Below, one piece after another: positions 1-32,672 of a stretch of 64,000 bases of DNA. Source of the DNA: Escherichia coli (GTDB lineage Bacteria > Pseudomonadota > Gammaproteobacteria > Enterobacterales > Enterobacteriaceae); NCBI RefSeq assembly GCF_003790525.1, contig NZ_CP033633.1, one strand, 5' to 3'. The notes below the pieces were generated by a model. It was given only the letters and a program-made list of their open reading frames with translations, was not told the DNA's origin and did not search any database. The position numbers and the translations under genes were made by a program. Within the stretch, counting starts at the first letter, position 1. Every line of letters starts with the position of its first letter.

Positions 1-231
1 GGTTGCCGCGTTGTTAGCAGTGATGGCCAGCAGGTTGTAACGGGGGGCGGCAAAGTTGTGAAAGGGCCCCCAGTCAATCATGCCCCACAGTGTGTGCAGG
101 ATCAGGCAGGAGGCGAAGACGATTTCAGGTAAAAAGCGCCAGATGATAATCGCAAAGAGCAGGCATATGGCACCGACGATATACCATATAGCCATTGGAT
201 CTTCGGCGGCAGAAGTCTGTTGGTAAGACAC
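1..231 (-). CDS. hypothetical membrane protein, partial (start inside window, rest beyond left edge)
   Basis: Minus-strand open frame running off the left edge; candidate GTG start at 231 with GGAGGA 7 nt upstream, in-frame ATG at 195; hydrophobic N-terminus AIWYIVGAICLLFAIIIW. Absent from ORF track because no stop in window. Confidence 0.3.
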   Translation of the reverse strand, partial: MSYQQTSAAEDPMAIWYIVGAICLLFAIIIWRFLPEIVFASCLILHTLWGMIDWGPFHNFAAPRYNLLAITANNAAT

Positions 232-567
232 GGGGATTCCTCCATCGATAAATGGATAAATTTCGGGATGAGGCTGAGTGGAATTAATGCGAACAATCGC
301 CGGTAATGACCGGGCAGGGATGAAATAACCAGGGTATTTTCACAGGAACAGCAGAAGGCAGTGAGAGACAGGCACAAAAAAACGACTGGTGAGGTCGGTT
401 TTTTTGCTATTCCGGGGCGGAGTTGGTGACTCTGACCGAAAGGGAAATCACTCTACATCTAACACCATCATAGTAGGCTGCGCTTCTCTTTTTTGCAATC
501 AGAAAAATGACTATAATCGCTCCGTTAGCTCTGTCTGGTGATGCTTCTGCCCTTTAATAAAATATGC

Positions 568-744
568 TCAGGTTAAAAACCGAAAACCTTCCTGCACTTC
601 CTGCGCCTGTTCCCGTGAGTCAAACATGAGCCGGCTTTTCCCCGGAACTCCCCAGGAAATATATTCTACATCCACCCACCATTTTCCGTATTCTTCATAC
701 GGTCCGGATATCACTTTAGTGACAAATGCATCAACCAGGTTCAT
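568..744 (-). CDS. small hypothetical protein, 58 aa, below ORF-track length cutoff
   Basis: ATG at 744 preceded by AAGGTG about 6 nt upstream; TGA at 568-570; hand translation MNLVDAFVTKVISGPYEEYGKWWVDVEYISWGVPGKSRLMFDSREQAQEVQEGFRFLT. Confidence 0.3.
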   Translation of the reverse strand: MNLVDAFVTKVISGPYEEYGKWWVDVEYISWGVPGKSRLMFDSREQAQEVQEGFRFLT

Positions 745-894
745 TTTTACACCTTTCTGTTATTCTGCTTATTACGGCCAGCAAACAGCAAATATTAAAA
801 ATAACGCGGCGGTAAAAATGGCAATTTTTTCCCATACTGTATTTTTTCCATTTATTTGCTTTGAAATGTTTTTTTGCTTCATATCAGTAAATGA

Positions 895-1386
895 TTATTT
901 TTTATTCTGTTTCCTCCAGGCCCATGGTGGCACCGGATTTTCATCTGCCCATAATCCCCGTTTAAGGGCACGGGCATCGCGCTGGAGAGCCGGGAGAGTA
1001 TAGTCCTTGTTGTAGTCCGGGTATACCCAGGCCGCTCCCTTCCTGATTTGCTCACGATTCGCTTCAGTGCCGTCAGCGGTATAGACTCTGCCGAGAATAC
1101 GGTTATATCTGTCGGTCTGTAAGTATTGTACGGTTACAGGCTTACCGGCCACCAGGTCTTTTAACTGAGAGGCAGACCAGCGTCCAAAGGGCTGTTTCTT
1201 TTCCGGTGCATCAATATTTGCCAGGCGGACCCTGACAGTTTTTTTATCCTGTAATATTTCCAGTGTATCACCATCAAGAACGCGGATAACGTTTCCCTGA
1301 ATCTGTGCAGCGCAGAGGGAACCTGAAAAAATAATAGCGAGAGAGAACATATATTTTATCATTTTATTACATCCTTTTTTATTCAT
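895..1386 (-). CDS. nuc: secreted thermonuclease (staphylococcal-nuclease fold, plasmid Nuc-like)
   Basis: Translation has SNase-like motifs (VLDGDT, RLANIDAPE, DRYNRILGRVY) and a signal-peptide-like N-terminus MIKYMFSLAIIFSGSLCAAQ; true start may be the internal Met at 1362 or 1350. Confidence 0.7.
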   Translation of the reverse strand: MNKKGCNKMIKYMFSLAIIFSGSLCAAQIQGNVIRVLDGDTLEILQDKKTVRVRLANIDAPEKKQPFGRWSASQLKDLVAGKPVTVQYLQTDRYNRILGRVYTADGTEANREQIRKGAAWVYPDYNKDYTLPALQRDARALKRGLWADENPVPPWAWRKQNKK

Positions 1387-1526
1387 GAAAAACAGGCGGC
1401 GTTTATATTACGGAATAATATCGTTAAGTTGAGTTTATGTTTCCGGTAATGTAATGCTTCACGCAGAGCATGAATTCCAGTAGGCTAATATTCATGATGA
1501 TATAGTAACAGATATCCGGTGACAGT

Positions 1527-2150
1527 ATGCAGGAACATATTGATTATCAGATTGAGAAATATCAGTTCAGGGCCAGGAATGAGTCTCCGCGACTGATGCG
1601 CCAGTGGGCAGATGTCATGCGTGAATGCCGTGATACCGGAGCAGGAGCCAGGGAGCGGCTGCGGATTGCCTTACTTAATGTTGATTATGTGACCAGTTTT
1701 GAACTGCCGTTTCGTCTGCTGTTAACCCGGACACCGCAGATGATTGACAGCGTGCGGCGGGAATGGCAGCTCAGCCAGAAAAAAGTCGTATTCAATGAGC
1801 GGCAGCGGGGATGTGTATACAGTCTGCAGAATGACTTATCCGGCGTGCCGGATAGCTTCAGTTACAGTCTTGCGACGCGAATACGGCGGGTGGACAGCTA
1901 TGGCATGACGACGCGTTGTTTCACTGATATAGCCGGGCAGGTTAAAGCCCCGACAGCACGGCTGAAACTGGCGCTGGAAAGCGGGTTAATTGTCACCGCG
2001 CTGGATGGTCTGTTCTGGCTTGGTATTCAGCGTATTGCCGCAGATGTGCAGCGGCTGCGTCAGTCCGGAATGACAATCATCACCCGGGATGTTGAGGTCT
2101 CAGACTCGCTGACCGGAACCACACGGGTTGTTTCCGGGTACAGCCTTTGA
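1527..2150 (+). CDS. hypothetical protein, 207 aa
   Basis: Long ORF with protein-like composition; no family recognised by eye; converges on and overlaps the 3' end of the minus-strand small-gene operon. Confidence 0.4.
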   Translation: MQEHIDYQIEKYQFRARNESPRLMRQWADVMRECRDTGAGARERLRIALLNVDYVTSFELPFRLLLTRTPQMIDSVRREWQLSQKKVVFNERQRGCVYSLQNDLSGVPDSFSYSLATRIRRVDSYGMTTRCFTDIAGQVKAPTARLKLALESGLIVTALDGLFWLGIQRIAADVQRLRQSGMTIITRDVEVSDSLTGTTRVVSGYSL

Positions 2151-2351
2151 TTTATGCAACAAAGTATCGCAGCGTCGAATATGAGCTATGGCCAGATTTT
2201 TGTTAATCGTGGTTGTTGCAACATGTAAGGCGAATGACCACACTATTCCGGTACGCTCGTAATCACGCTGAAATTCTGCTTCCTGTCCTGCCGTGATGAG
2301 TTCCGACCAGGACATACGGCGAAGTGTATGTCTGTCAGTAATATCCGTCAT
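2100..2351 (-). CDS. hypothetical small protein, 83 aa
   Basis: Last gene of a run of four small minus-strand ORFs with 4-bp start/stop overlaps (translational coupling pattern). Confidence 0.25.
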   Translation of the reverse strand: MTDITDRHTLRRMSWSELITAGQEAEFQRDYERTGIVWSFALHVATTTINKNLAIAHIRRCDTLLHKSKAVPGNNPCGSGQRV

Positions 2352-2563
2352 GAGCTCTCAGCCTCCTCCTTCGTATTTCCGTCAGAAACACAAACGCCCC
2401 GCAGAGAAAATTCGCCAACATTCTCCTTTTTAATGGCGCGCAATGCATCGCGGCAGGCCCGTTCGGTATGAAAGGCCTGGCTGTGCACCGCCAGTGTGGG
2501 CTGACGGGCATCACCGGAAGAGACATTAAAGGGCGATGAAAGCCAGAAAATCAGTAGCCACAT
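2348..2563 (-). CDS. hypothetical small protein, 71 aa, hydrophobic N-terminus
   Basis: Coupled ORF in the same small-gene operon; N-terminus MWLLIFWLSSPF looks signal-peptide or TM-like. Confidence 0.3.
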   Translation of the reverse strand: MWLLIFWLSSPFNVSSGDARQPTLAVHSQAFHTERACRDALRAIKKENVGEFSLRGVCVSDGNTKEEAESS

Positions 2564-2566
2564 GCG

Positions 2567-2950
2567 TCACACCTCGTCCTTTTTATGCGGGTATCTGGAC
2601 AGAATATTGAGCGCCTGTAATGGCGCTTCATGCATTTCACGGATACAACGGGCATCGGTGATATTTTCCCGGTAATGTGTGGTTTCCAGCATCATATGAT
2701 GCATATGGAGCATCCGGGCCAGGGCTGCGCGGAGTTCTTCAATATGTTGTTCATGGGAATGCTGGCGGGGCTGTATCCGGCAGAGAGGGATAACCTCCAC
2801 ATCATCCGGGTGCGCGCGAAGCCACGCGTCAGTGACTGCAATGTCGTCAGTGTAAAACCATGTGCCGGATGTCCCGTTGGCCAGAAAACGCATTTTCCAG
2901 GCTTCTGGGGTGGCGGTTGTGTTGTTATCTTTCATGGTGCCACCACTCAT
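2567..2950 (-). CDS. hypothetical protein, 127 aa
   Basis: Protein-like ORF (WFYTDDIAVTDAWLRAHPDDVEVIPL); competing plus-strand ORF 2630..3031 is Cys/His-rich and looks like a shadow frame. Confidence 0.35.
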   Translation of the reverse strand: MSGGTMKDNNTTATPEAWKMRFLANGTSGTWFYTDDIAVTDAWLRAHPDDVEVIPLCRIQPRQHSHEQHIEELRAALARMLHMHHMMLETTHYRENITDARCIREMHEAPLQALNILSRYPHKKDEV

Positions 2951-3138
2951 TCAACAGGCTTAATGCTGTCCAGGCGCAGTCTGCTCAGACTGTCGTGGCT
3001 GCCACAGCGGCGTCCAGTGCTTTTGCTGTAGCACTCCTGCCCCCTGATACACCATGCCGTTGGCGTTTCGTAGAGGCTGACACGTCGGGTTTTATCTTTA
3101 ATGATGAGAAGCCCGGTGTAAGTTTTTGTCTTTTTCAT
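2947..3138 (-). CDS. hypothetical small protein, 63 aa
   Basis: First ORF of the coupled small-gene run (4-bp overlap with next gene). Confidence 0.25.
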   Translation of the reverse strand: MKKTKTYTGLLIIKDKTRRVSLYETPTAWCIRGQECYSKSTGRRCGSHDSLSRLRLDSIKPVE

Positions 3139-3234
3139 CGGTGGGGTACAAACGCAGAAATTTTGTTGTCATTACATCATCAGTTTTAGCCTGCAGAGAC
3201 GCTGAAAAATCAGCGTTTTCAGACCCTGTTCAGG

Positions 3235-3477
3235 TTAGTGAATATTCTTGCCTGGCCTTTCGGCAATATCAATCCCCTGGAGTTGCATGGATATGCCCAT
3301 ACCGTTGACCATGAGGCTGTTTATGGACTGAACACCACATTTCATCATGAGCTCAAAACACAGTGCGCTGAGCATGCCGAGCGCCTCTTCTGAGGACTGG
3401 CAGTGTGTATTCAAAAGAGTATTGAACTGTTTAACGATATCCGGGGTGAGGCACATACTTTGTATTTCGTCTTTCAT
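3235..3477 (-). CDS. small hypothetical protein, paralog A of a duplicated small-gene family
   Basis: ATG at 3477 with AAGGAG about 5 nt upstream; shares motif DIVKQFNTLLNTHCQSSEEALGMLSALCFELM with the ORF at 4011..4193; preceded by a conserved ~420 bp repeat. Confidence 0.45.
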   Translation of the reverse strand: MKDEIQSMCLTPDIVKQFNTLLNTHCQSSEEALGMLSALCFELMMKCGVQSINSLMVNGMGISMQLQGIDIAERPGKNIH

Positions 3478-3615
3478 GACTACTCCTTATTTCAGGCATT
3501 TTGCATTTTGGGTTAATAACACGAAGCCCGTAGACGGAAAACCTGAGGCGTTCGGATGGGATAATTCCCGGGTATTTTCCTGTTCCGGATACAAAAAATA
3601 TAACGGCATGAAAAG

Positions 3616-4035
3616 GATTGTGGCGGACAGGAAAACAATTAGAATAGCTGCGGGCGCTTGAGGCTGTATGCCGAAAGCGTTTTGTGGACGGCATGCAGCA
3701 GAAAGCCCCAGGCGATCTTTTTATCAATCAACCCAGGGCCCACTGTAATGCCTCAACAACATTATAGTAGCCCGATGACGGCCGAAAGGCAATGGAGGGG
3801 CTGCGATGCCACAACGAACGTTTTTAATAATGTTAATCGTCGTCTGTGTGACGATACTGTGTTTTGTCTGGATGGTGAGGGATTCGCTTTGCGGATTTCG
3901 TATCGAGCAGGGAAATACGGTGCTTGTGGCAACGTTAGCCTACGAAGTTAAACGTTAACGGGCAACACGGCGGCAGGACATCTGCCGCCGGATTGTTGCG
4001 AAGGCTGACCTCAATGCGCCTTGTTTGTCTTTTTT
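3616..4035. repeat. direct repeat copy 1 (~420 bp, ~95 percent identical to copy 2), non-coding element upstream of small gene A
   Basis: Aligned by eye against 4336..4755 (offset 720 bp); contains hairpin CGGCGGCAG-GACATC-CTGCCGCCG and a TATAAT on the minus strand; plus-strand ORF 3658..3951 inside it looks non-coding (Cys/Trp-rich). Confidence 0.8.
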
Positions 4036-4193
4036 ACCGGACGATGGATCCCACTCCTCCTCATCAGTTCGTAGCAGAGTGTACTCAGCATGGCAAGTGC
4101 AGCTTCTGATGATTTACAGTGTGTATTCAGGAGGGTAAGAAATTGTTTAAAAACATCAGGGTTTATACTGGTGCTTTGATATTCGTTACTCAT
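4011..4193 (-). CDS. small hypothetical protein, paralog B (about 60 aa from internal ATG of track ORF 4011..4313)
   Basis: ATG at 4193 with AAAGGAAA upstream homologous to the paralog A start region; motif DVFKQFLTLLNTHCKSSEAALAMLSTLCYELM; its stop codon lies at the edge of repeat copy 1. Confidence 0.45.
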   Translation of the reverse strand: MSNEYQSTSINPDVFKQFLTLLNTHCKSSEAALAMLSTLCYELMRRSGIHRPVKKTNKAH

Positions 4194-4335
4194 AGTATTT
4201 CCTTTCAGGTCATTATTACTTCCGGATTTAACATGATGTCTGTAACCATAAAATAATGAACGTGTTCCGGGAGTCATTGCCGTGTAGTTTCCCGTAAAAA
4301 TACTGTTGTGCATTACATGTCATTAGGTGGAAACC

Positions 4336-4755
4336 GATTGTGGCAGACTGAAAATCGATTAGAATAGCGGCGGGCGCTTGAGGCTGTATGCTGAAAGCGT
4401 TTTGTGGACGGCATGCAGCAGAAAGCCCCAGGCGATTTTTTTATCAATCAACCCAGGGCTCTACTGTAATGCATCGACAACATTATAATAGCCCGATGAC
4501 GGCCGAAAGGCAATGGAGGGGCTGCGATGCCACAACGAACGTTTTTAATAATGTTAATCGTCGTCTGTGTGACGATACTGTGTTTTGTCTGGATGGTGAG
4601 GGATTCGCTTTGCGGATTCCGTGTCGAGCAGGGAAACACAGTGCTTGTGGCAACGTTAGCCTACGAAGTTAAACGTTAACGGGCAACACGGCGGCAGGAA
4701 ATCTGCCGCCGGATTGTTGCGAAAGCAAACCTCAATGCGCCCTTTTTTACCTGGA
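4336..4755. repeat. direct repeat copy 2 of the ~420 bp conserved element
   Basis: Near-identical to 3616..4035 with a few substitutions and a 1-bp indel near its end. Confidence 0.8.
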
Positions 4756-4992
4756 TTTCTGCAGCGCGTTTCAGCATAGCATGCAGTTCTGTGCTGATCC
4801 TTGCTTCCAGTCGGGCAGTTTGTGTTGCAGATGGCATGATTTGTACTTCCTGAATATACTGAACGGCAAATTGCCGTATTGTGCTAATTACAGTCTGATA
4901 CAGGGACGGCAGACAGGCATTCTGCCTGAAAAGAAAAAGCCGGTTCAGAGAAAACCGGCTGACGGATTATCGTCTAACAGTTGATAGCTACC

Positions 4993-5637
4993 TCAAAATA
5001 CTTCTGCAACAGGAACACCGGCAACTTTTTCCCACTCTTTAACCCGATACCGGATCATCTGCGGGAAACGTTCCTTGTACTCATATCCACGTGCAGCCAT
5101 GGTGTGCATGGTGTTGGCCAGCGTCCTTGCTGAGATGCCGGAGATCTCAAGAGGAATCATCGGCAGACTCACATAGGTGGTGTGGATTTCCAGCTTGCCG
5201 TCTTCAGCAACTGTTCGGGTGAAGTTGTGAATATCCAGACCAATCACATCCATCACATTGTTTGGATAAATACGCACATACAGCATGGTGCCGTTTTTAA
5301 TGTCGATCCCGAAATAACAACTCTTTGAGAATGACAGTTGCTCGTAATCGCTGGTCGGCGCAAAGGGACTGCTTTCTTTTATCTTCTTAACAACCTGCAG
5401 GATTTTCTTTTTCTTCGCTCTGGTTTTCAGATATAGCCAGAGTAATGGGATTATGAGTAACGTCCAACTTCCATATGCATATATATAATCATATTTAGTT
5501 GAATAGATATCTAGACTTAATGCTGTAAAAGCAATGGCACAAAAAATTAAAAATGGAACTCCAAATAAAAAATAAGCGTTGCGGACAAGGTAATAATATG
5601 CCCACCAGGAAGGATATCTGCTTTTTTGTTCATTCAT
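4993..5637 (-). CDS. membrane protein at the position of entry-exclusion gene excA (downstream of traY)
   Basis: 214 aa, two N-terminal TM segments then a Lys-rich linker and soluble domain; AT-rich N-terminal half; identity as ExcA is by position and size only. Confidence 0.4.
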   Translation of the reverse strand: MNEQKSRYPSWWAYYYLVRNAYFLFGVPFLIFCAIAFTALSLDIYSTKYDYIYAYGSWTLLIIPLLWLYLKTRAKKKKILQVVKKIKESSPFAPTSDYEQLSFSKSCYFGIDIKNGTMLYVRIYPNNVMDVIGLDIHNFTRTVAEDGKLEIHTTYVSLPMIPLEISGISARTLANTMHTMAARGYEYKERFPQMIRYRVKEWEKVAGVPVAEVF

Positions 5638-5723
5638 AATAAACCTCCATATTCACCTGGTTGTATTTTAATATCACCAGGCGAATATGGCAATGCTTTT
5701 TATTTGTTTTTGATGTTTTTACT

Positions 5724-7889
5724 CTATTGTTTTATTCCATCCTTATCATTCCTATTAATATTTTTTAGTTTCTCTTCACGAACGCCAGGTGTTCTGCGTA
5801 TATTGGTGTTTCCGCCGGCAATAATATCTTTGACGGAAGAAACCATATTCCCCAGCATATTAACTCCGTCACGTCCGCCCAGGAAATTAATCACATGGTC
5901 TGGCAGATAAGCCTGAAGCGCAAAAACGCCCGCAACCAGTGTGGTACATGCGCGGGCATAAATCATCAAAAATCCCGCCACGCTGAACACGCCTGTTACT
6001 GAACTTACTTGGACATTCATCAGCGCAGCAGCAAACAGTGCATTCAGTATTGTGCCGCCGGCCACGATGGCGACCGATGCAAAAAAGAACCCGAAAACCA
6101 TCAACAGAGGCCTGATCATGCTGTCTATCAGGTAGATGTAACCGTAAGCAGCCCGGCTTCCCCGGTCCTGGCTTGTTCCCAGATGGGTGGCAGCCCACAG
6201 GGGGCCGGCGGCACATCCAATCAGCACGCTGACTATCCAGTTGCCGATGCCGGTCATCCAGAAGATAAACGGAATAAACGGCAGGTAAATGGATAACGAA
6301 AAACCGGCACAGAACAGCAAAAACAGCAGGAAGTAGAGCGGTGGTGCGGAGGCTTCCAGAAAAGCCTTTGCGGCGTCAGATAATCCACTAACGGCATTGA
6401 CCAGTCGACCAAAAATGGAGTTGCTGCCGGCAGAGGAAAGCACCCTGACGGTGGTATAACCCGCCCAGATGGTCTCGGTTGTTACCATTGTGTAATCACC
6501 GATATCCTTCATCTTCAGCAGAGGATTTGCCTGATAGGATGTAGTTCCTGTACTAGAATATACAGTTGCGATTTTATATGTCAGTTTCGTAAAGTCCGGT
6601 GACATTAACTTTATAATTGCACTTTGTGGATCATTTGTATTGGCAGCATATATCTCATCAGAAGATGTTAGATTTCCCAGCGCAGGAGTATATGGTGAGT
6701 TCTGCAACTGTGCCTGGTAAGCTCCTCTGACTTCCTTCAGGAACTCAGTATCTCCGGCTTCGCCCTGCGATGAAACTCCACTCACAGTGGGGGCACGGTC
6801 GGCCAGTTCTGCCAGTCGCTGGTTGGCGGTGGCAAAGGTCTGGTACCAGGCCCCCAGGGCAACCCAGCCGTAGGTGGTCAGGTAGGATTTCAGCTGCTCC
6901 CTGCGCTCAGTTTCTGCGTTATCTGTTGGCAACGCCTTCTGCACCGTTTCTTCATACCGGTTGGCAGCCTTCTGAATACGGCTTTCAATATCCGGCAGGT
7001 TGCCGTTACCCGTGTCGCGCCGGGTCCGGTACGCTGACACAAATTCCTGTGCTGCGCTGTCCAGGTCACGGAGCATGGTATCCATGGCAGACCGTTGTGC
7101 CGTCAGGACTCCCTGATACTCCGTTTCAATGAAGGGATTGAAAAAATAGTCCAGCGCGGACTGGTTGTTGCTGCCATTCCCTTTCACGGTGAGACTCACA
7201 CTCCCGCAGGTGGCACTGCCATTTGAAACGGTGACGGTATACCTGCCGTTCTCTGTCCGTGAGGATTCGCTCATGGGGGGCGTTGATGAACGGGCAGTAC
7301 GGTTAAAGTCATCGAGGCCTGCATTCATGGCGTGTTTGCACAGCGCCATCTCCAGTATTCCCCGTGCTGCCGTGCGGGTGGAGACATGAACTGGCTGTAC
7401 GGTCATTGAATAGCCTTCAGCAATGTTTTCTGCCGCTGTCTGAACCATGATATTGGCGGAACCGATGCCCATGATGGATGCGCCCCACAGCATGACCAGT
7501 TGCGCCAGACTCCAGCCGGAAGCGGTGGGCACAATCATCAAAAATCCACTCACGACACTGAGTATGCCGACGACGTCCCGTCCGTTGTTAAAGACACTGC
7601 CCTGGTGGCCGGTGCGGACAACATGACGGATACCAATAAACAGGAACCAGACTATCCCCATAATGGCGATAATTGCGTTAAACACCATGAACAGGTTGCC
7701 GATAATGGTGTTGCTGCTGGCTGTCAGGGGATTTGTGACCACGTCGCCAAAAATGGTGACCAGTGCCTGGCGCGACAGGTCATCCGGATTGGTGGCGGCG
7801 CTCACAATGTCCTGATAGGTGACGAATGCCTGTGCAGGTACGGCAGCCAGCGCCAGACCCGCACTCAGTGCTCTGGGTATGATTTTCAC
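5724..7889 (-). CDS. traY: conjugal transfer integral membrane protein TraY (DotA-like)
   Basis: 721 aa polytopic membrane protein with signal peptide, last large gene of the tra array; size and position match R64 TraY. Confidence 0.7.
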   Translation of the reverse strand: MKIIPRALSAGLALAAVPAQAFVTYQDIVSAATNPDDLSRQALVTIFGDVVTNPLTASSNTIIGNLFMVFNAIIAIMGIVWFLFIGIRHVVRTGHQGSVFNNGRDVVGILSVVSGFLMIVPTASGWSLAQLVMLWGASIMGIGSANIMVQTAAENIAEGYSMTVQPVHVSTRTAARGILEMALCKHAMNAGLDDFNRTARSSTPPMSESSRTENGRYTVTVSNGSATCGSVSLTVKGNGSNNQSALDYFFNPFIETEYQGVLTAQRSAMDTMLRDLDSAAQEFVSAYRTRRDTGNGNLPDIESRIQKAANRYEETVQKALPTDNAETERREQLKSYLTTYGWVALGAWYQTFATANQRLAELADRAPTVSGVSSQGEAGDTEFLKEVRGAYQAQLQNSPYTPALGNLTSSDEIYAANTNDPQSAIIKLMSPDFTKLTYKIATVYSSTGTTSYQANPLLKMKDIGDYTMVTTETIWAGYTTVRVLSSAGSNSIFGRLVNAVSGLSDAAKAFLEASAPPLYFLLFLLFCAGFSLSIYLPFIPFIFWMTGIGNWIVSVLIGCAAGPLWAATHLGTSQDRGSRAAYGYIYLIDSMIRPLLMVFGFFFASVAIVAGGTILNALFAAALMNVQVSSVTGVFSVAGFLMIYARACTTLVAGVFALQAYLPDHVINFLGGRDGVNMLGNMVSSVKDIIAGGNTNIRRTPGVREEKLKNINRNDKDGIKQ

Positions 7890-7961
7890 GATAACTCCGG
7901 AACCGAAGGGATGCAGGGCATCAGCCTCCGGAATGAGGAAAAGGAATTGCAGACCGGACGG

Positions 7962-8531
7962 TCAGTACTGCCGGTGGGTAATGGCCAGCCATGTGGCCTG
8001 TTTCCAGCCGTGCCGGGCCTGCAGGTAATCGGGGAAGGTGCCCTGTTCGTCCTCGCTGACCCGCCGTTCATTCAGTTGCCAGAGGCGGTATGACACAATC
8101 AGGGTTTTTGAGGCACACAGTGCTGCAATGGCACTCATCAGTAACAGGCAGGCCAGTATACGTATCAGGGTGATGGCCGGAAGCGCTGTGGCAGCAAGGG
8201 CCATGCCGCACAGCAGAAGTACCGGTATCATCATCAGCCAGAATCCTGTCCGCCAGAACATCCTGCGACGTCGCAGACGCCGATCCAGTTCGTTGACCGT
8301 AAGGCCGCTGGCCCTGACGGCTTCTTCCCAGGTCATACAGACCGGACTCTCCGGTTGCCGGTCGGGCATGAGGCGCTTCAGGCGCGTTTTATGCTGGCCC
8401 AGCATATGGCGGCAGCTGCGCAGCATCCACCGGGTTTCGGCCAGTGGTGCGAACAGGTTTATCCCGATGTCACCGATGCGGCGGAGACGGGGGGCCGGTT
8501 TTTTTTTGTCGGTGCTGTTGTCGTCTTTCAT
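7962..8531 (-). CDS. traX: conjugal transfer membrane protein (TraX by position)
   Basis: 189 aa, basic N-terminus then two TM segments; position between traW and traY. Confidence 0.45.
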   Translation of the reverse strand: MKDDNSTDKKKPAPRLRRIGDIGINLFAPLAETRWMLRSCRHMLGQHKTRLKRLMPDRQPESPVCMTWEEAVRASGLTVNELDRRLRRRRMFWRTGFWLMMIPVLLLCGMALAATALPAITLIRILACLLLMSAIAALCASKTLIVSYRLWQLNERRVSEDEQGTFPDYLQARHGWKQATWLAITHRQY

Positions 8532-9733
8532 CTTACGCTCCCCTGGCTCATGGCCTGTGACAGTTCACCGAGACGCTGTCCGTAATACTGTCGTGCCGCC
8601 AGTGCCAGCTGCTGCCCGGCGATAACATTACCCTGGCGTATCTGCTCTTTCAGGTCGTTCATCTGCCAGTTCAGCAGGGCGGTAGTGCGCAGCAGTTCAC
8701 GGAGAAGGTTATCGCCTTCCATGCCCTGCAGATCCTGCTGCCAGTCGGTGTTTGCATAGCGTCTGCCGGCTTCAAAGGCCTCAAACTCCCGCTGGCTCAT
8801 GTGACCACGGGTGCGGGCCTCTGATGATGCGGTACGGTCAAAATATGCCGCAGCGGATGGTGACTGCAGGGCTTCAGTCAGTGCTCCACGGGTGGCCTCA
8901 TTAGGGGTACTGTCAGCTATCAGTGACAGTTGCGGATGAGAGGCGGCATCGATGATGCCGTTGTATTCATTCTGCAGGCCCACATACGTGCGCCCGGTCT
9001 GTGTTCCCACTTCACCTTTCCCCGGGGCACGACCCGCTGACGGTCTGGCGGTGTTTTTCATATAAGCCGTGGCGGCATCAATCTGTTTCTGATCCCAGGT
9101 GAGGGCGGCAGGGGTATCTGCTGTGCCTGCGCCCTGATAGAGCGATCGTACCTGGCTGTCTCCGCCCGGCAGATCGCCCACGGCAGGGCAGACATCGGTT
9201 CCGCCAAAGCGGGCATACTCCGCTTCCGTGCAGTAACCGGCGTGGATGCCGGCACTGTCATACGCCTCGCGGACCGGGGAGTCTGCAGCCCGGGAGAGAC
9301 GTTCCCGGATGGGTTTACTGCTGACCCCTCCCCCCTGACTCAGACGTGCCGCTGCAGACGCTGCTGCCCGGCGGCTTTCTGCTGCAATGCCGGACGCGGA
9401 TTCACTGCAGATGGAGTCCGGCACGCTGAAGCTTTTCCTGGCCTCCTCGAGGCGGTGTGTTTCATTACTGAATATCATCTGCTGACGGGTGGCCTGCCCG
9501 TCCTGGGCAATGACGGTGGCCAGTTTTTCTGAGTTCTGGGTGATGGCTGTGCCGGTGGCCGTCTGCATACGGACCATCTCTGCCATCACGCCCTGAATGG
9601 CGGCCAGCTCCGGCATGATCTGTCGGGTGACCGGCTGACTGGACACAACATTCACAGAGTAGGCATGGGTGGCAGGGATAACCGCACAGCCTATCAGGAG
9701 TGCAAGCAGTGTGGTTGCAGATTGTCTTTGCAT
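8528..9733 (-). CDS. traW: conjugal transfer lipoprotein (TraW by position); start taken at internal ATG 9733
   Basis: Track ORF 8528..9838; internal Met gives signal peptide MQRQSATTLLALLIGCAVIPATHA and about 401 aa. Confidence 0.5.
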   Translation of the reverse strand: MQRQSATTLLALLIGCAVIPATHAYSVNVVSSQPVTRQIMPELAAIQGVMAEMVRMQTATGTAITQNSEKLATVIAQDGQATRQQMIFSNETHRLEEARKSFSVPDSICSESASGIAAESRRAAASAAARLSQGGGVSSKPIRERLSRAADSPVREAYDSAGIHAGYCTEAEYARFGGTDVCPAVGDLPGGDSQVRSLYQGAGTADTPAALTWDQKQIDAATAYMKNTARPSAGRAPGKGEVGTQTGRTYVGLQNEYNGIIDAASHPQLSLIADSTPNEATRGALTEALQSPSAAAYFDRTASSEARTRGHMSQREFEAFEAGRRYANTDWQQDLQGMEGDNLLRELLRTTALLNWQMNDLKEQIRQGNVIAGQQLALAARQYYGQRLGELSQAMSQGSVR

Positions 9734-10311
9734 TCTTTTTTCTCCGTTTTCGGGGGATACAGGATGTCTGGTACGCGATGACTGAGTGATTCCGGCAGCG
9801 GAGCCAGCGGGAAACACTGGAAGCGGCGCGTGATCCATCCCTGACGGTTACGGTTATCGATGAGCGTGAAGGTACGACGCTTCACGCGTTTCAGTGTCGG
9901 GGTGTCGCTTTCCATGACCGGCCAGTCTCCGGCTGTGAGTGCCGGTGTGCCGTGGACATCCGGCCACAGCCAGGTGTTGTCAGACATCAGCGCAGTGAGT
10001 GGTGCGGGCAGAAGCCAGTGAATGACATGCTGTATATCAAAAGGCGGTCGCTCCGGCACGTTAACCTGCCAGGTGGCCGTTGTTATCAGCGTGCCTGTCT
10101 CTCCGGGCAGGGCCAGGCGAATACCACTCATCTCCCCGTCAGCCCGTCTGTCACTGGCAAAAATGACCCGGGGATTGGGGGACGGTCGCAGTGTGAAGCA
10201 GGCGGACGGCAGGGTGAAGCTGAAACTGTCACCGTCCACGCGCAGCGTTTTCAGGAAGACCTGTCCCCGTGCAGGACGCCGGCAGCGGGGAGTGATGTGT
10301 ATGCTGTACAT
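9694..10311 (-). CDS. traV: conjugal transfer protein (TraV by position)
   Basis: 205 aa ORF tightly packed between traU and traW. Confidence 0.4.
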   Translation of the reverse strand: MYSIHITPRCRRPARGQVFLKTLRVDGDSFSFTLPSACFTLRPSPNPRVIFASDRRADGEMSGIRLALPGETGTLITTATWQVNVPERPPFDIQHVIHWLLPAPLTALMSDNTWLWPDVHGTPALTAGDWPVMESDTPTLKRVKRRTFTLIDNRNRQGWITRRFQCFPLAPLPESLSHRVPDILYPPKTEKKECKDNLQPHCLHS

Positions 10312-28278: not shown

Positions 28279-29481
28279 TCAGAAGGTGAACTGTAACTGA
28301 GCAATGGCACCGTAGTTGTTGTCGGTGCCCATGAGGCCGGCGACATCAATGTGAATCACATCAAACGGTGAGAGCCCAATCCCGGCAGTGAATGCACTGC
28401 CGTTGTTGCTGGCCAGATTCTGGCGGTAACCGGTACGTAACTGTGCCCATTTCCAGGCATTAAACTCAGCACCAACGGCGGCAAACTGACGTTTGCTGTC
28501 TGATGTGAAGCCGCTGGCCGGGGTCAGATCCACATCCAGTGCCGTGGTGAACATGTCGTTGTGCCATGATACGCCGGTCGTTACCTGCGGACGGATCCTG
28601 AAGGTCTCGCTGACACCATTCACTTCTTTGGTTTCAATACTGCGGGGGAGCAGGTTCTGTGCGACCAGTCCCAGCGTCCAGTTGTCATCCAGGTCCATGC
28701 TGGCGCCGATGTCGGCGTTGATGCCATTTTTCGTGTTGTGGTAGCGGTCACCTTTGAATGCGCTGCTGTCATAATTTTTGACCAGCACGTTGTAGTTGAA
28801 CAGGTCAACACGCTGGAATTTTGGTGTGAAGCCCAGTGACCATTTTTGTCCGGCGGTCTCCAGTTCGGTGGCCAGCGCAATGCCCACATCAGTGACCAGT
28901 ACGGCACGGGCAAATGCCTGAGAGGTCAGTCGGTTTTTGTCCACATTCTGACCGTTGCTGTTTACAATGCTTTCCAGATAGTTCAGGTCTGCATCACTGA
29001 CCTTACCGTCAACGCTGACAGTACCGAAGGTTTTTAGCATCAGGGCTGCAGCGAGAGTATCACCGGGAAGGGCTGCCACAGCGGAAGCGCCCACCTGTGC
29101 GTCAGCATGCGTGTGACGGAAGTCCTGAAGTTGCGCCTTCAGACGCGCAGCGGTCTGCGGTACGCCGCTCTGTGCGTCGACGGCACGCTCAAAGGCTTTC
29201 CAGTCATCACTGATTTTATCGGCGTTGTCGGTGATATTACCCGGGTCGGACAATTGTGCCCCGACGGACGGAAGAAGAAGACTGAAGTCATCTTTTGCAC
29301 CGGATTTTGTCAGCAGTGCCGGGTTTGCCAGTGGGGCCACACCATAGTGAGAGGAGGCAACCCCCGTTCCTCCCATCGCATCATTGCGGGCTTCAAAATA
29401 TGACGTTGCTGCAGTCGAATTAAAGGAAAATAAAACGGCAGACGCGATGAGAGTACGGGTAATATGCTTTTTCATCATCAT
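28279..29481 (-). CDS. conjugal transfer protein with signal peptide and beta-barrel-like C-terminus (TraF by position)
   Basis: 400 aa, signal peptide, ends ...IAQLQFTF (outer-membrane-like terminal strand). Confidence 0.5.
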   Translation of the reverse strand: MMMKKHITRTLIASAVLFSFNSTAATSYFEARNDAMGGTGVASSHYGVAPLANPALLTKSGAKDDFSLLLPSVGAQLSDPGNITDNADKISDDWKAFERAVDAQSGVPQTAARLKAQLQDFRHTHADAQVGASAVAALPGDTLAAALMLKTFGTVSVDGKVSDADLNYLESIVNSNGQNVDKNRLTSQAFARAVLVTDVGIALATELETAGQKWSLGFTPKFQRVDLFNYNVLVKNYDSSAFKGDRYHNTKNGINADIGASMDLDDNWTLGLVAQNLLPRSIETKEVNGVSETFRIRPQVTTGVSWHNDMFTTALDVDLTPASGFTSDSKRQFAAVGAEFNAWKWAQLRTGYRQNLASNNGSAFTAGIGLSPFDVIHIDVAGLMGTDNNYGAIAQLQFTF

Positions 29482-29582: not shown

Positions 29583-30404
29583 TTACCAGGGGGATAACGG
29601 AACCCTGAATAACGCAGTGGGTAATATTTTTCCTGTTATCAGATATTCTGCCTGTGCCGGAGTGAGTGTTACGGCGCGAACAGGGATATCCGGAGATATT
29701 TTTCGGGCCATCTGAAACCAGCCTTCTTTTTCTATATCCATTCTGACCGGATATAACGAAAGTACCGGATAAATAATGGTGTTATTAATTTCTTTTTTCT
29801 GCCTGAGCAGAACGCCGCAATATTCTCCGGAATGCGTTCCGGCAAACGGAAAACCATGCCAGAGAATAATGTCCATATTCTCGCGGGCTGAAATAATCCT
29901 GCAGAATATCTCCTGTGTGGCTGGCCAGTCTCCCGGACGATACAGTGGATAATGCACCCTGCCGTTCAGCCATTCCGGACTGAGATAAAACCAGTCAGCC
30001 AGTGCTGCAAGAATCTCCCCGGTCAGATAGTCAGTGAGTCTGTCCGGCTCCCGGAAGACGGCAGGGCGGATATTCCAGGGGGCCAGTAATGCAGCCATCG
30101 TTGTTGCGCTGATATCATGTGCCTGCATGATGTGCTCCATCCTGCTGAGAAGACGGCGGACGATGTTATCTGCAGGAAGAAACATTTCACTTAACGCGTC
30201 TTCGACCAGGATACGCGTCAGGTCAGAGACGGAAAGAGAAAGCTGTTCGCTCATGATACCAAGGGCATCCCTGACTCCCTGCGGATAACGAACCTGCAGG
30301 GGTGTGGACTGCAGCTGGCGATGACTGAGCAGGCATTCGCAAATTCGCTCCCTGTCCAGGGAGAGCATCATACGGGCGGCAATACCTGTGCTGTCAGTTT
30401 TCAT
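29583..30404 (-). CDS. conjugal transfer protein (TraE by position)
   Basis: 273 aa ORF, first gene after rci in the array. Confidence 0.4.
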   Translation of the reverse strand: MKTDSTGIAARMMLSLDRERICECLLSHRQLQSTPLQVRYPQGVRDALGIMSEQLSLSVSDLTRILVEDALSEMFLPADNIVRRLLSRMEHIMQAHDISATTMAALLAPWNIRPAVFREPDRLTDYLTGEILAALADWFYLSPEWLNGRVHYPLYRPGDWPATQEIFCRIISARENMDIILWHGFPFAGTHSGEYCGVLLRQKKEINNTIIYPVLSLYPVRMDIEKEGWFQMARKISPDIPVRAVTLTPAQAEYLITGKILPTALFRVPLSPW

Positions 30405-30677
30405 TTCACCTCCATGCGGGTCAGCGTGTTTTGTTCATAAATTGAGTCTAAAGAGAGTGTTTTTTAAACGGAAGCGAGTTATTTCGATCGTTATGATCGA
30501 GTGTGTTTCAAGAGTGCTTTTAACTCTGTTTTAAGCGTGAATGAAAAGGATTCGGACAGGACGTGATTTAGTATGCCGCTGGTCTGGCATTATGCTGCAG
30601 AGCAGACGGAGTCAGGAGATTGAAAGTATTTCGTTATATAATCTTTTCCTTTTCGGGATGAAATCAACGAGGTTCGT

Positions 30678-30998
30678 ATGAAAATTAAACAGCATAAAGA
30701 AAAACTGGAGATTATAAGGGATATTATTCGAGAGACGCTGTTGGGTAATGCTGCTCTTATTGTTCTGGCAGCCATGGTTCCGGTTGTACTGGTGAAACCA
30801 TGGGATTCGATGACATTTATTTTTATGGGGGCCGTGTGTGTTTCTTTTGCAGTCATTCTGTTTTGGCTGGTTTATATAGTTTGTTTGTATATAGGAACGC
30901 TTGTAAAGAATATTTTTATAAGGATTTTTGCTTTTTCTATTTGGGCCCTTTCTGCTGAGGGGGCAATTATTTATAACATGATAAAGATATTATCATAG
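30678..30998 (+). CDS. small hypothetical membrane protein, 106 aa, AT-rich
   Basis: ATG with GAGGT 4 nt upstream; three predicted TM segments; on the strand opposite to the tra/pil array. Confidence 0.35.
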   Translation: MKIKQHKEKLEIIRDIIRETLLGNAALIVLAAMVPVVLVKPWDSMTFIFMGAVCVSFAVILFWLVYIVCLYIGTLVKNIFIRIFAFSIWALSAEGAIIYNMIKILS

Positions 30999-31089
30999 AA
31001 AAGCTGTTTATATATTGGCTCTATGTAAAAAGAATGGTACCACTGCCAGAGTCCCCGTCGTTATTTTTATGCGTTGGGGCCATGAATGT

Positions 31090-31410
31090 TTATTTGGCAT
31101 CCCTTATCTCGCCCATCAGCAGGCGGATATGCAGCCAGGTGTCATGATCCAGAACAGGTGATGGTGTTACCATGCAAGCACAGTGCCCGATGGCGAGCGT
31201 ATCAAGGAAGCGTTTTGCATCGTTGGCACTTTCATATTCACCAGTATGGATCAACATCCACCTTTGCCCCAACGCTGATTCGGTGTGAATTGGTTGCGAG
31301 AATGCGATTGTGTAAACGTCTTCAATTGTAACGATACGATTATTATCCGCAGTGGCTGCATGGGAGGATAAGTGTTTCATAAAGGGTCTCATAGCGTTAA
31401 TTTTGATCAA
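31090..31410 (-). CDS. hypothetical protein, about 100 aa
   Basis: ORF between traE and rci; track start is TTG, internal ATG starts possible at 31392 or 31380. Confidence 0.3.
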   Translation of the reverse strand: MIKINAMRPFMKHLSSHAATADNNRIVTIEDVYTIAFSQPIHTESALGQRWMLIHTGEYESANDAKRFLDTLAIGHCACMVTPSPVLDHDTWLHIRLLMGEIRDAK

Positions 31411-31421
31411 AAATTATTTGT

Positions 31422-32591
31422 TCAGGAGGAGGATATGAAAATACTGTTCGCTTTTGTCATGAACTGGCTGTTTGTTAACGGACAAATCATGACCCGTTCA
31501 TCAATGTTTGCGGGTAGCTCGCCTGGTGTGGGGACGCGTTCACCCCGCTGAGCAGCCTGGGCCAGTGCGCGCAGCAACAATACGCTGGCGTGAGATATTG
31601 CCAGTTCCCGGGTTTCAGCACGGCTTTCAAGGTCGAAATCGTGCAGTGTCACAATGAACACTCCGTTTCTGTTTCTGACAGTTGCAGGGTAGGGAACAAA
31701 ATAAGGGGAAATTTTGCTGGTCTGTTTACGCCTTGCATCGAGTTTACTGACCAGGTGATATGCCCGGAGGTGTGTGTACCGTTTCAACATGTTCAGTGAG
31801 CGGTGACCGGAAATGGCTGCAATCTCCATAACGTTCAGTGTGCCGAGCTCGAACAGACGGCTGATGGCCTCATGGCGTAGATCGTGAAAATGCAGATTTT
31901 CTATTTTCAGATCCAGAAGAGCGGTACGCCAGGCGCTTTTGAAACCGGACGAGGTGTAATTGAACACATTGCCGTTTATCTGTTGTGGCAGAATTTGCAG
32001 GTAGTTACGTGCTTTCCGGGAGAGTGGTACGTCGCGTGGTGAGCCATTTTTCGTTTCAGGAAGATGCGCCACGCCGTGCTGCAAATCGATGTGTTCCCAG
32101 CGTAATGAGAGAATTTCTCCCTGGCGCATTGCTGTTTCCAGAGCCAGATGGAAGATAACGTAGAGCTGCGGATTTTTGTCCCTGAAATAGCGGGAAAGGC
32201 GGCGTTCTTCACCAGAAGTCAGTCGGCGGTCGCGGCCATTACTGATTTTCGGTTTTCGGACCAGTTCAACAGGATTCATACGGCATGTTCCCCATTCCAC
32301 ACGGGCGATATTGAATAATGATGATAAAAGGGCAAGTTCAAGACGGACGGTATTTCCGGTGATTTGACGCCCTGTTCGTGGGTTAATTTGAGCTAAACGC
32401 TGATCCCGGTAACCGGCGATATCAATGGTAGTGATTTCATCCATATAGCGCTCGGCCATAGGGTGACGTTTAATCACATTGACGCGATAAAACTCCTGCA
32501 GATGACCTTTTTTATGGACGGAAACGGTTTTCAAGTATTTGTCCAGCGCCCGGTTGAGAGTCATTTTGCGAATTTTGATTTTTCGAAACAT
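31422..32591 (-). CDS. rci: shufflon-specific tyrosine recombinase Rci
   Basis: Track ORF 31422..32906; real start at ATG 32591 ([20 protein letters not shown]), about 389 aa; integrase motifs ([25 protein letters not shown]); immediately adjacent to the sfx repeats. Confidence 0.85.
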
Positions 32592-32653: not shown

Positions 32654-32672
32654 GTGCCAATCCGGTGTGTGG
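32654..32672 (+). repeat. shufflon sfx repeat GTGCCAATCCGGTGTGTGG
   Basis: Exact 19-mer, also at 33148 and inverted at 33877; encodes CQSGVW in the PilV frame. Confidence 0.85.

Follow-up and report, generated by a model that had tools for sequence, protein, structure and literature searches.

An artA-family gene and a putative VirB11-derived mini-gene in the traE–rci interval of an I-complex plasmid

The stretch of Escherichia coli contig NZ_CP033633.1 analysed here (64,000 nucleotides; the window) belongs to an I-complex conjugative plasmid, and the interval between its transfer gene traE and its shufflon recombinase gene rci (positions 30405–31420) contains two small convergent open reading frames (ORFs), ORF-A and ORF-B. 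The interval forms an accessory slot, prone to recombination, where the thin-pilus/shufflon block (pil–rci) meets the traE–traK block. By homology, ORF-A is a member of the ArtA family, that of the “anti-tra” gene of the F plasmid, and ORF-B appears to be derived from the core of a secretion ATPase of VirB11/CpaF type, in the stretch from Asp box to His box. Taken together, these identities, the architecture of the slot and the conclusion that ORF-A and ORF-B are two unrelated, independently assorting genes rather than a toxin/immunity pair are probably correct. Any specific molecular activity considered below for ORF-A or ORF-B is, taken singly, unlikely.

A mosaic slot at the pil–tra seam

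A megablast search of PLSDB with the interval 30405–31420 as query found its traE-proximal 157–364 bp in 442 plasmids and the whole interval in only 129. Comparison of the rci–traE junctions revealed a mosaic, with a content that differs among I-complex plasmids, as anticipated by an earlier note on this DNA, which had proposed a cargo slot. The slot is nearly empty in p15648-2 and pESBL, where rci abuts traE (~150–210 bp between the two genes). The window carries ORF-A and ORF-B; CP088445 and pECOED carry an A' allele (48% identical) together with ORF-C, a 93-aa membrane ORF, without B; the IncK2 plasmid pPK8275-82kb carries a B' allele (57% identical) and ORF-D, a 181-aa lipoprotein-like ORF, without A; L021–L023 carry B alone; and L008, L012, L024 and L026 combine B, ORF-C and either A' or A''. 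In pairwise blastn comparisons, the traE-side breakpoints fall at 30568 (v0), 30624 (v3) and 30779 (v2/v4), and also at 30803, whereas those on the rci side lie at 31470 in B-less plasmids and at 31051/31086 in B-carrying ones. When each module was searched in PLSDB by tblastn, A-type sequences were present in 130 records (plus ~44 divergent ones), B in 133 (plus 64 divergent), C in 27 and D in 953, the last mostly elsewhere in IncI plasmids. ORF-D, located at 3401–3946 (plus strand) of L005, contains the lipobox LSGC; most of its 953 matches are 90–95% identical and occupy another position in IncI-type plasmids.

The two genes of the window occur apart from each other. A is found without B in L003 and L019 (A' with ORF-C), and B without A in L005 (B' with ORF-D) and L021–L023. 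One and the same B allele, varying at 5 amino-acid positions, stands beside three A alleles (A, A' and A'', including those of L012 and L026), and alleles are re-assorted in L012, L024 and L026. Pairwise blastn shows that A and B came in as distinct pieces of DNA, each with breakpoints of its own; the genes converge and share no operon. Homologues of each are found inside transfer operons in other plasmids, ArtA in F and the mini-VirB11 genes beside virB11. Finally, ORF-A, ORF-B and the alleles of their neighbours gave no toxin, antitoxin, immunity or defence match above noise (E ≤ 1) in Pfam, NCBIfam, PADLOC or PHROGs. The toxin/immunity-like pattern seen by the earlier note in a small membrane protein with a small soluble partner is thus unsupported, because the two genes come from different sources, have different breakpoints, assort freely, converge and lack any family evidence for such a pair. 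One observation points the other way: in PLSDB the A allele of the window is always accompanied by B (129–133 records). This constant company may reflect a clonal backbone or, alternatively, a functional link in this variant.

The content of the slot and its flanking genes are dispensable, since rci abuts traE in pESBL and p15648-2 and transposon sequencing of pESBL classed traE, traF and rci as neutral for transfer (PMC4288162), which suggests that neither ORF-A nor ORF-B is a core transfer component. A related segment is found on the very long contigs L009 and L010 (positions 1–10216 of 539 kb), with pil, the shufflon, rci, B', C, a frameshifted artA, traE and traF, and after them ORFs unrelated to tra and a methylase of a type III restriction-modification system; it may be part of an I-type transfer region that has integrated into a chromosome or is carried by a megaplasmid.

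Because the rci-side breakpoints differ between B-less and B-carrying plasmids, the B module can be delimited as a 419-bp cassette, in which ORF-B follows rci on the tra strand. The Rci protein ends in CPLTN in L003 and L004 and in CPLTNDQLMTKSTTILTSPC in L005, each directly followed by the stop codon, and is extended in the window. The cassette displaced the original stop codon of rci and made its product 15 residues longer. In L008 (5628–5727) and L012 (3127–3213), the final ~100 bp of rci (window 31470–31571) recur directly after the cassette; this second copy is 86–93% identical to the first, so that the cassette is bracketed by direct ~100-bp repeats, an obvious route for its gain and loss by homologous recombination. 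Capture of the cassette by Rci itself was considered and rejected, no sfx-like site being present in or beside the slot. In the protein P0048, a B' allele is joined by read-through to the duplicated C-terminal tail of Rci. Antisense to the Rci extension and the rci 3' end, a 38-aa ORF (31436–31552, plus strand) has a strong Shine-Dalgarno sequence (AGGAGGAGGAT before its ATG) and a hydrophobic N-terminus derived from the cassette; it may be spurious.

ORF-B and the VirB11/CpaF ATPase core

ORF-B has three candidate start codons, at 31380 (ATG, 96 aa, the start annotated by RefSeq in the identical plasmid NZ_CP080166), 31392 (ATG, 100 aa) and 31410 (TTG, 106 aa). A word-indexed search with its product returned no more than 14 proteins, all from E. 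coli, which are conserved at both ends and vary in between. A more distant relative was found by tblastn in a Serratia plasmid, where an 83-aa gene located between virB10 and virB11 encodes a protein 42–47% identical (E 5e-16). A hidden Markov model (HMM) of the family, searched against 1.8 billion representative proteins, gave 21 matches: small relatives (P0046, P0058 and P0064), followed by ATPases of the T2SSE family (P0053, 1e-8; P0054, 1e-6; P0056, 1.5e-5; P0059, 4e-5; P0062, 4e-4), all five confirmed as T2SSE by Pfam. The Serratia-type small relatives scored 15.5–18.8 bits against PF00437, below the cutoff of 24.9; the Pfam scan gave no PF00437 match for the ORF-B protein of the window; and the best matches in a PDB search, to CpaF (E 0.06), were not significant.

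Alignment of the ORF-B family with the ATPases by hhalign gave a probability of 98.2% (E 3e-14), to be read with the caveat that the ATPase set was picked from the matches of ORF-B itself. Residues 12–89 of ORF-B are aligned with residues 151–248 of P0059, with a 21-residue gap, and the alignment brings together the Asp box (NNRIVTIEDV in ORF-B, ERIVTIEDV in the ATPase), Walker B (MLIHTGE and RIVIGE), the His box (FLDTLAIGH and MLSALNTGH) and a further segment (RIRLLM and RIESLM), the three boxes being elements of the RecA-like C-terminal domain of the VirB11/CpaF (TadA) clade of T2SSE proteins (for example CpaF, PDB 8rkd; TrwD; HP0525). The allele of the window retains RIVTIEDV in the Asp box, LIHTGE in the Walker-B-like segment and TGH in the His box, while other alleles show TGRD and TGN. 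ORF-B departs from this clade in its size (96 versus ~330 residues), in an internal deletion of 21–25 residues, in the second His of the His box, which is absent from all alleles and replaced (TPSP), and in the variation among alleles of the Walker-B Glu and the Asp-box acids. The alignment begins past Walker A; the P-loop GxxGxGK[ST] and the N-terminal domain are not present in ORF-B, which therefore cannot be an ATPase itself.

The small relatives of ORF-B match VirB11/TrwD genes by tblastn (E 6e-5 to 7e-3), and they flank virB11 in other plasmids, in two different operon layouts. In L014, the gene for the small relative P0058 (1746–2066) overlaps the start of virB11 (2056–3084) by 11 nt. 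P0058 ends in RLNVILRGKTGKGKT, a tail with the Walker-A-like sequence GKTGKGKT; it corresponds to residues 168–187, the Walker A region, of the adjacent full-length VirB11, and the order is permuted, the Walker-A-like tail coming after the His-box segment. Such an order suggests an origin by tandem partial duplication. Derivation of ORF-B from the plasmid's own TraJ or PilQ was rejected, these proteins scoring 1–3 bits as against 20–48 for VirB11/CpaF-type proteins; no further VirB11 remnants were found in the other frames of the slot. In the literature searched, a VirB11-derived mini-gene of this kind appears to be undescribed.

The evidence on whether ORF-B has a function is mixed. It is intact at 83–106 aa in at least four deep lineages; it has a family motif, GHxxCMVTP, which departs from the ATPase consensus GHxGSxxTxHA; and its ratio of non-synonymous to synonymous substitutions (dN/dS) is 0.43 with respect to the Serratia member. 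Several observations weigh against a function. The corresponding ratio among I-complex alleles (pN/pS) is ~1, reaching 1.0–1.2 in codons 18–64 (not significant), and near-identical alleles differ at 0 synonymous versus 5 non-synonymous positions (not significant). The acids of the Asp box and the Walker-B Glu vary across alleles, there is no Shine-Dalgarno sequence upstream of ORF-B, and truncated alleles (55–60 aa) are common, on hundreds of contigs. Structure prediction with AlphaFold2 gave no confident fold, with a predicted local distance difference test (pLDDT) score of 45 from 12 sequences and of 46 from 19 including ATPase segments, and in neutral simulations the ORF-B frame stayed free of stops with probabilities of 0.19, 0.09 and 0.045 at 62, 95 and 145 substitutions, so that its persistence is only mildly unlikely under neutrality.

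These latter points speak for ORF-B being a functionless, drifting relic, which would stem from a partial duplication of virB11 and have been carried along into the 3' region of rci, as do its absence from many I-complex plasmids and the permuted Walker-A-like tail of P0058, which fits a duplication junction. The intact deep lineages, the family-specific motif and the dN/dS value argue against a relic, and so does the position beside virB11, kept in both operon layouts and including the overlap in L014. We regard the relic as a strong contender that falls somewhat short of an even chance. Since the evidence on function is so divided, a weakly selected regulator or decoy and a relic are given roughly equal weight, and we consider them about equally likely.

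ORF-A and the ArtA family

ORF-A encodes a 106-aa protein with hydrophobic stretches at residues ~21–39, 45–73 and 79–101. BLASTP related it to ArtA of the F plasmid (WP_000415566, NC_002483; E 4e-11, 35% identity over 91 aa) and to ArtA of an F-like plasmid (E 2e-13), and its exact protein is already named ArtA in UniProt (A0A066QJC0). The tblastn matches annotated as “toxin ArtA” or “protein ArtA” also pointed to F-like plasmids, and a profile search gathered 166 clusters, all from Enterobacteriaceae, in which F ArtA was grouped with ORF-A. The alignments reveal a common N-terminal motif, KEKLEIIRxIIRExLLGNAA (T or S at the variable position before LLGNAA when ORF-A and F ArtA are compared), and common residues W63, Y71 and W89. 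ORF-A resembles F ArtA (~105 aa, with several membrane segments) in being encoded on the strand opposite the surrounding transfer genes, and it has the general build of the family, ~100–113 aa with a charged N-terminal helix followed by hydrophobic segments. The differences concern the membrane part, which is only ~25–30% identical, the convergent neighbour, which is ORF-B and not a membrane protein, and the location: artA lies between trbA and traQ in F, a plasmid with mating-pair formation (MPF) system of type F, and between traE and rci, in an MPF_I plasmid, here. The trbA–traQ location defines the F locus and not the ArtA protein family.

Between I-complex alleles, pN/pS of artA is 0.18 in codons 1–34 (pS 0.46), and the N-terminal 34 codons are under purifying selection. 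Beyond codon 34, in the membrane part, it rises to 0.65–0.72, with pS near saturation there. The homology of A' and A'' to the window ends at 30779/30803 and resumes at 31051, and the segment between 30780 and 31050 is unique to the window variant. These patterns point to a translated gene in which the predicted cytosolic head is constrained, whereas the membrane body evolves fast and is swapped between alleles. An intact, 100% identical copy of the window allele is carried by 124 plasmids, none of which has ORF-C, and A' is often frameshifted.

The orientation of artA recurs in other plasmids. In the window it is on the plus strand amid the minus-strand genes traF, traE and rci; in F and F-like plasmids, where it is placed between traQ and trbA, it also lies opposite the transfer genes; and in MPF_T plasmids of ~40 kb, ArtA-family genes, often unannotated, are antisense between virB4 and virB5. 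ArtA is thus antisense to transfer genes in 4 of the 5 contexts examined, across MPF types F, I and T, the exception being the 30-kb plasmid L018. The MPF_T genes are located at 3998–4321 (plus strand) of L017 and at 3501–3824 (plus strand) of L027–L030; they are unannotated in NZ_CP146509 and present in 342 blocks of the collection.

This part of the slot is an already known, orphan gene. Our literature search found no paper that assigns a function to plasmid ArtA, and in what is apparently the only genetic study, Kathir and Ippen-Ihler (1991) reportedly saw no transfer phenotype in artA mutants; both count against the reading of ArtA proposed below. “Toxin ArtA” is the name used by NCBI annotation for F-type and some I-complex proteins (L011, L012, L007–L010 and many entries). 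Literature support for this label was sought and not found for plasmid ArtA, the matches concerning Salmonella ArtAB or pSK41 ArtA, and the Pfam scan found no toxin domain in F ArtA. The label is probably a name collision with the unrelated Salmonella ADP-ribosyltransferase ArtAB, which could mislead annotation-based screens.

The combination that comes closest to a pair is that of artA and ORF-C; the window lacks ORF-C, and no remnant of it was found there. ORF-C is a 93–94-aa protein with several membrane segments (L008, 5331–5612, minus strand; L003, 4593–4874, minus strand; L024, 2938–3222, plus strand). It is convergent with artA A' or A'', the 3' ends overlapping by 8–11 nt, and it co-varies with the artA allele, A' being found with C and A'' with C'' (53% identity between C and C''). 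F-like plasmids show this geometry for artA and trbA, or a trbA-like ORF, the two either overlapping or lying end to end, and artA, trbA and trbG co-occur there (PMC5102898). ORF-C was rejected as a TrbA homologue (BLASTP E 0.92; hhalign probability 0.5%).

This co-variation, the shared geometry and the frequent frameshifts in A', as might be expected of a costly gene, favour the view that ArtA acts as a small toxin in the membrane, or perturbs the membrane, and that its natural partner is the convergent ORF-C in I-complex plasmids or trbA in F-like ones, and/or that it is under antisense control from the tra strand. The window would then have lost the partner, ORF-B merely filling the place of ORF-C. 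That 124 plasmids without ORF-C carry this allele intact and unchanged is hard to square with an unneutralised toxin, and the two supposed partners show no homology to each other. Regarding type I modules such as hok/sok, pndA and srnB, the likeness lies in a gene for a small hydrophobic protein on a conjugative plasmid, with potential antisense control by convergent transcription; ArtA is twice as long as their proteins, with a conserved soluble N-terminal helix and three membrane segments. No antisense RNA gene was found at artA, in terms of an Rfam match or a significant structure (fold z-scores near 0), and convergent transcription of ORF-B and rci could supply such an RNA. This toxin reading, with its partner and the loss of that partner from the window, is on balance unlikely.

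Setting of the two genes and proposed roles

The window is a 100% match of pPK8275-145kb, a plasmid typed as IncK2/Z, MPF_I and MOBP. The coordinates of the slot and its flanking genes are collected in Table 1. ORF calls place ORF-A and ORF-B where the earlier note had put them, convergent between traE and rci; its GAGGT ribosome-binding site was recovered, and its three membrane segments agree with the hydropathy profile. The low-GC patch that it described holds for the ORF-A half only. G+C is 0.33–0.41 across 30400–31100, compared with 0.52–0.57 in traE, and 0.52 in the ORF-B half (31100–31300), so that the AT-rich patch consists of the traE–ORF-A intergenic region and ORF-A. The interval had also been described as a spacer and is instead filled with genes, not non-coding. 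Both ORFs are more than chance, because ORF-A has more than 160 homologous clusters and a constrained N-terminal part, and because the frame of ORF-B is homologous to VirB11.

Table 1. Features of the traE–rci interval and its flanks (window coordinates).
Feature	Coordinates	Strand	Basis or remark
traF	28279–29481	−	Minus-strand neighbour of traE
traE (273 aa)	29583–30404	−	Left flank of the slot; ORF call; “conjugal transfer protein TraE” in CP088445
Divergent traE/artA intergenic region	30405–30677		blastn breakpoints
Shine-Dalgarno-like GAGGT	30669–30673	+	Read from the sequence; 5 nt between GAGG and the artA ATG
ORF-A (artA family by homology, 106 aa, ATG start)	30678–30998	+	BLASTP, profile search, hydropathy
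Allele-specific segment (artA codons 35–106 and most of the 91-bp spacer)	30780–31050		blastn
Stop-to-stop spacer between ORF-A and ORF-B (91 bp)	30999–31089		Convergent gene ends
B cassette (419 bp)	31051–31469	−	15-codon rci extension, 41-nt gap, ORF-B and ~40 bp; blastn breakpoints
ORF-B (96 aa)	31090–31380	−	Putative VirB11/CpaF core derivative without Walker A; stop at 31090
Rci C-terminal extension (15 codons and stop)	31422–31469	−	Rci ends compared
rci, shufflon recombinase (389 aa)	31422–32591	−	Right flank of the slot; Pfam Phage_integrase E 3e-25

Within the traE/artA intergenic region, the portion from 30405 to ~30568 is common to all I-complex variants and that from ~30569 to 30677 is confined to those carrying artA (pairwise blastn). 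No significant RNA fold was found in it. The 91-bp spacer contains no convincing terminator and no Rfam match, with fold z-scores of −0.19 (plus strand) and −0.41 (minus strand), and the terminator-like matches of the scan fall within artA and have poor T tails. Beyond rci, the minus strand continues with the shufflon and then pilV. There are only four sfx cores (GTGCCAATCCGGT), at 32654, 33128, 33149 and 33883, one of them just upstream of the rci start; compared with the shufflon of R64, the four-core shufflon of the window is reduced. A 389-aa Rci product is also present in L007–L010. On the other side of traE, ~100 bp between traH and traF (28176–28278) occupy the place where pESBL carries traG.

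ArtA would most likely sit in the membrane and modulate the mating apparatus or the envelope. It is probably an inner-membrane protein of ~106 aa with a cytoplasmic N-terminus, whose conserved helix would probably act as the functional interface, while the three membrane segments evolve fast and are exchanged as alleles. Its own ribosome-binding site and its divergent placement from traE suggest that artA has a promoter to itself and that its expression would not depend on the regulation of tra. A TATAAT is found at 30637–30642, spotted by eye only, and a consensus scan of the plus strand of the intergenic region gave no sigma-70 match, its promoter-like hits being unconvincing, which counts against such a promoter. 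As the spacer lacks a terminator, transcripts from artA are expected to overlap those from rci/ORF-B, with mutual interference, and artA would be subject to interference from convergent transcription of the tra strand.

ORF-B, if active, would most plausibly act by contacting VirB11-like hexameric ATPases. A small accessory protein, HP1451, is said to act on the VirB11 hexamer HP0525 in Helicobacter pylori (Hare et al. 2007); the hypothesised activity of ORF-B would be analogous, a small protein binding and inhibiting a VirB11 hexamer, with the difference that HP1451 is not derived from an ATPase. In one version of this idea, ORF-B would be a decoy subunit that attaches to VirB11-type hexamers encoded by rival MPF_T plasmids (IncN/W/P/X) and makes these plasmids transfer less, and so a fertility-inhibition factor of I-complex plasmids, which themselves use the DotB-like TraJ. 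Its greater nearness to VirB11/CpaF than to TraJ or PilQ is consistent with a decoy, as are its accessory, patchy distribution and the near-neutral or diversifying central block between conserved flanks, typical of conflict proteins. The proposal is, however, purely inferential, ORF-B having neither translation signals nor a predicted fold, and relatives that adjoin their own virB11 look less like a weapon than like a self-regulator or a relic; a decoy is accordingly quite improbable. We are equally sceptical of a wider proposal in which ORF-B would represent a new class of Walker-A-less mini-subunits that tune or poison VirB11-type hexamers, and ArtA a pan-MPF (F, I and T), antisense-encoded membrane modulator with a functional anti-tra orientation. 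Under it, the mini-subunits would serve self-regulation beside virB11 and inter-plasmid fertility inhibition once captured by I-complex plasmids.

Least probable of all, and very unlikely, is a two-gene addiction or immunity module in which ORF-A would be the membrane toxin and ORF-B the soluble immunity protein or antitoxin, since, for all that a small membrane protein stands beside a small soluble one in a variable AT-rich slot, that the two alleles keep company in PLSDB and that some databases call ArtA homologues toxins, the genes re-assort, converge and lack matching families, ORF-B is apparently derived from an ATPase and linked to virB11 elsewhere, and the toxin name lacks a paper behind it.

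The main value of the analysis lies in the corrected reading of the slot, as two independent accessory conjugation genes and not a toxin/immunity cargo pair. The presence of the ArtA family in three MPF types provides a comparative framework and testable alleles for a 35-year-old orphan gene. The VirB11-derived mini-gene is a modest curiosity, possibly a relic, and even as a relic it documents the gain and loss of a cassette at the rci 3' end through recombination between ~100-bp repeats. If functional, it would be a fragment of a motor ATPase recruited as a small regulator or decoy, and would bear on the means by which plasmids regulate or disrupt type IV secretion, and so on the spread of resistance plasmids such as IncK2, IncB/O and IncI.

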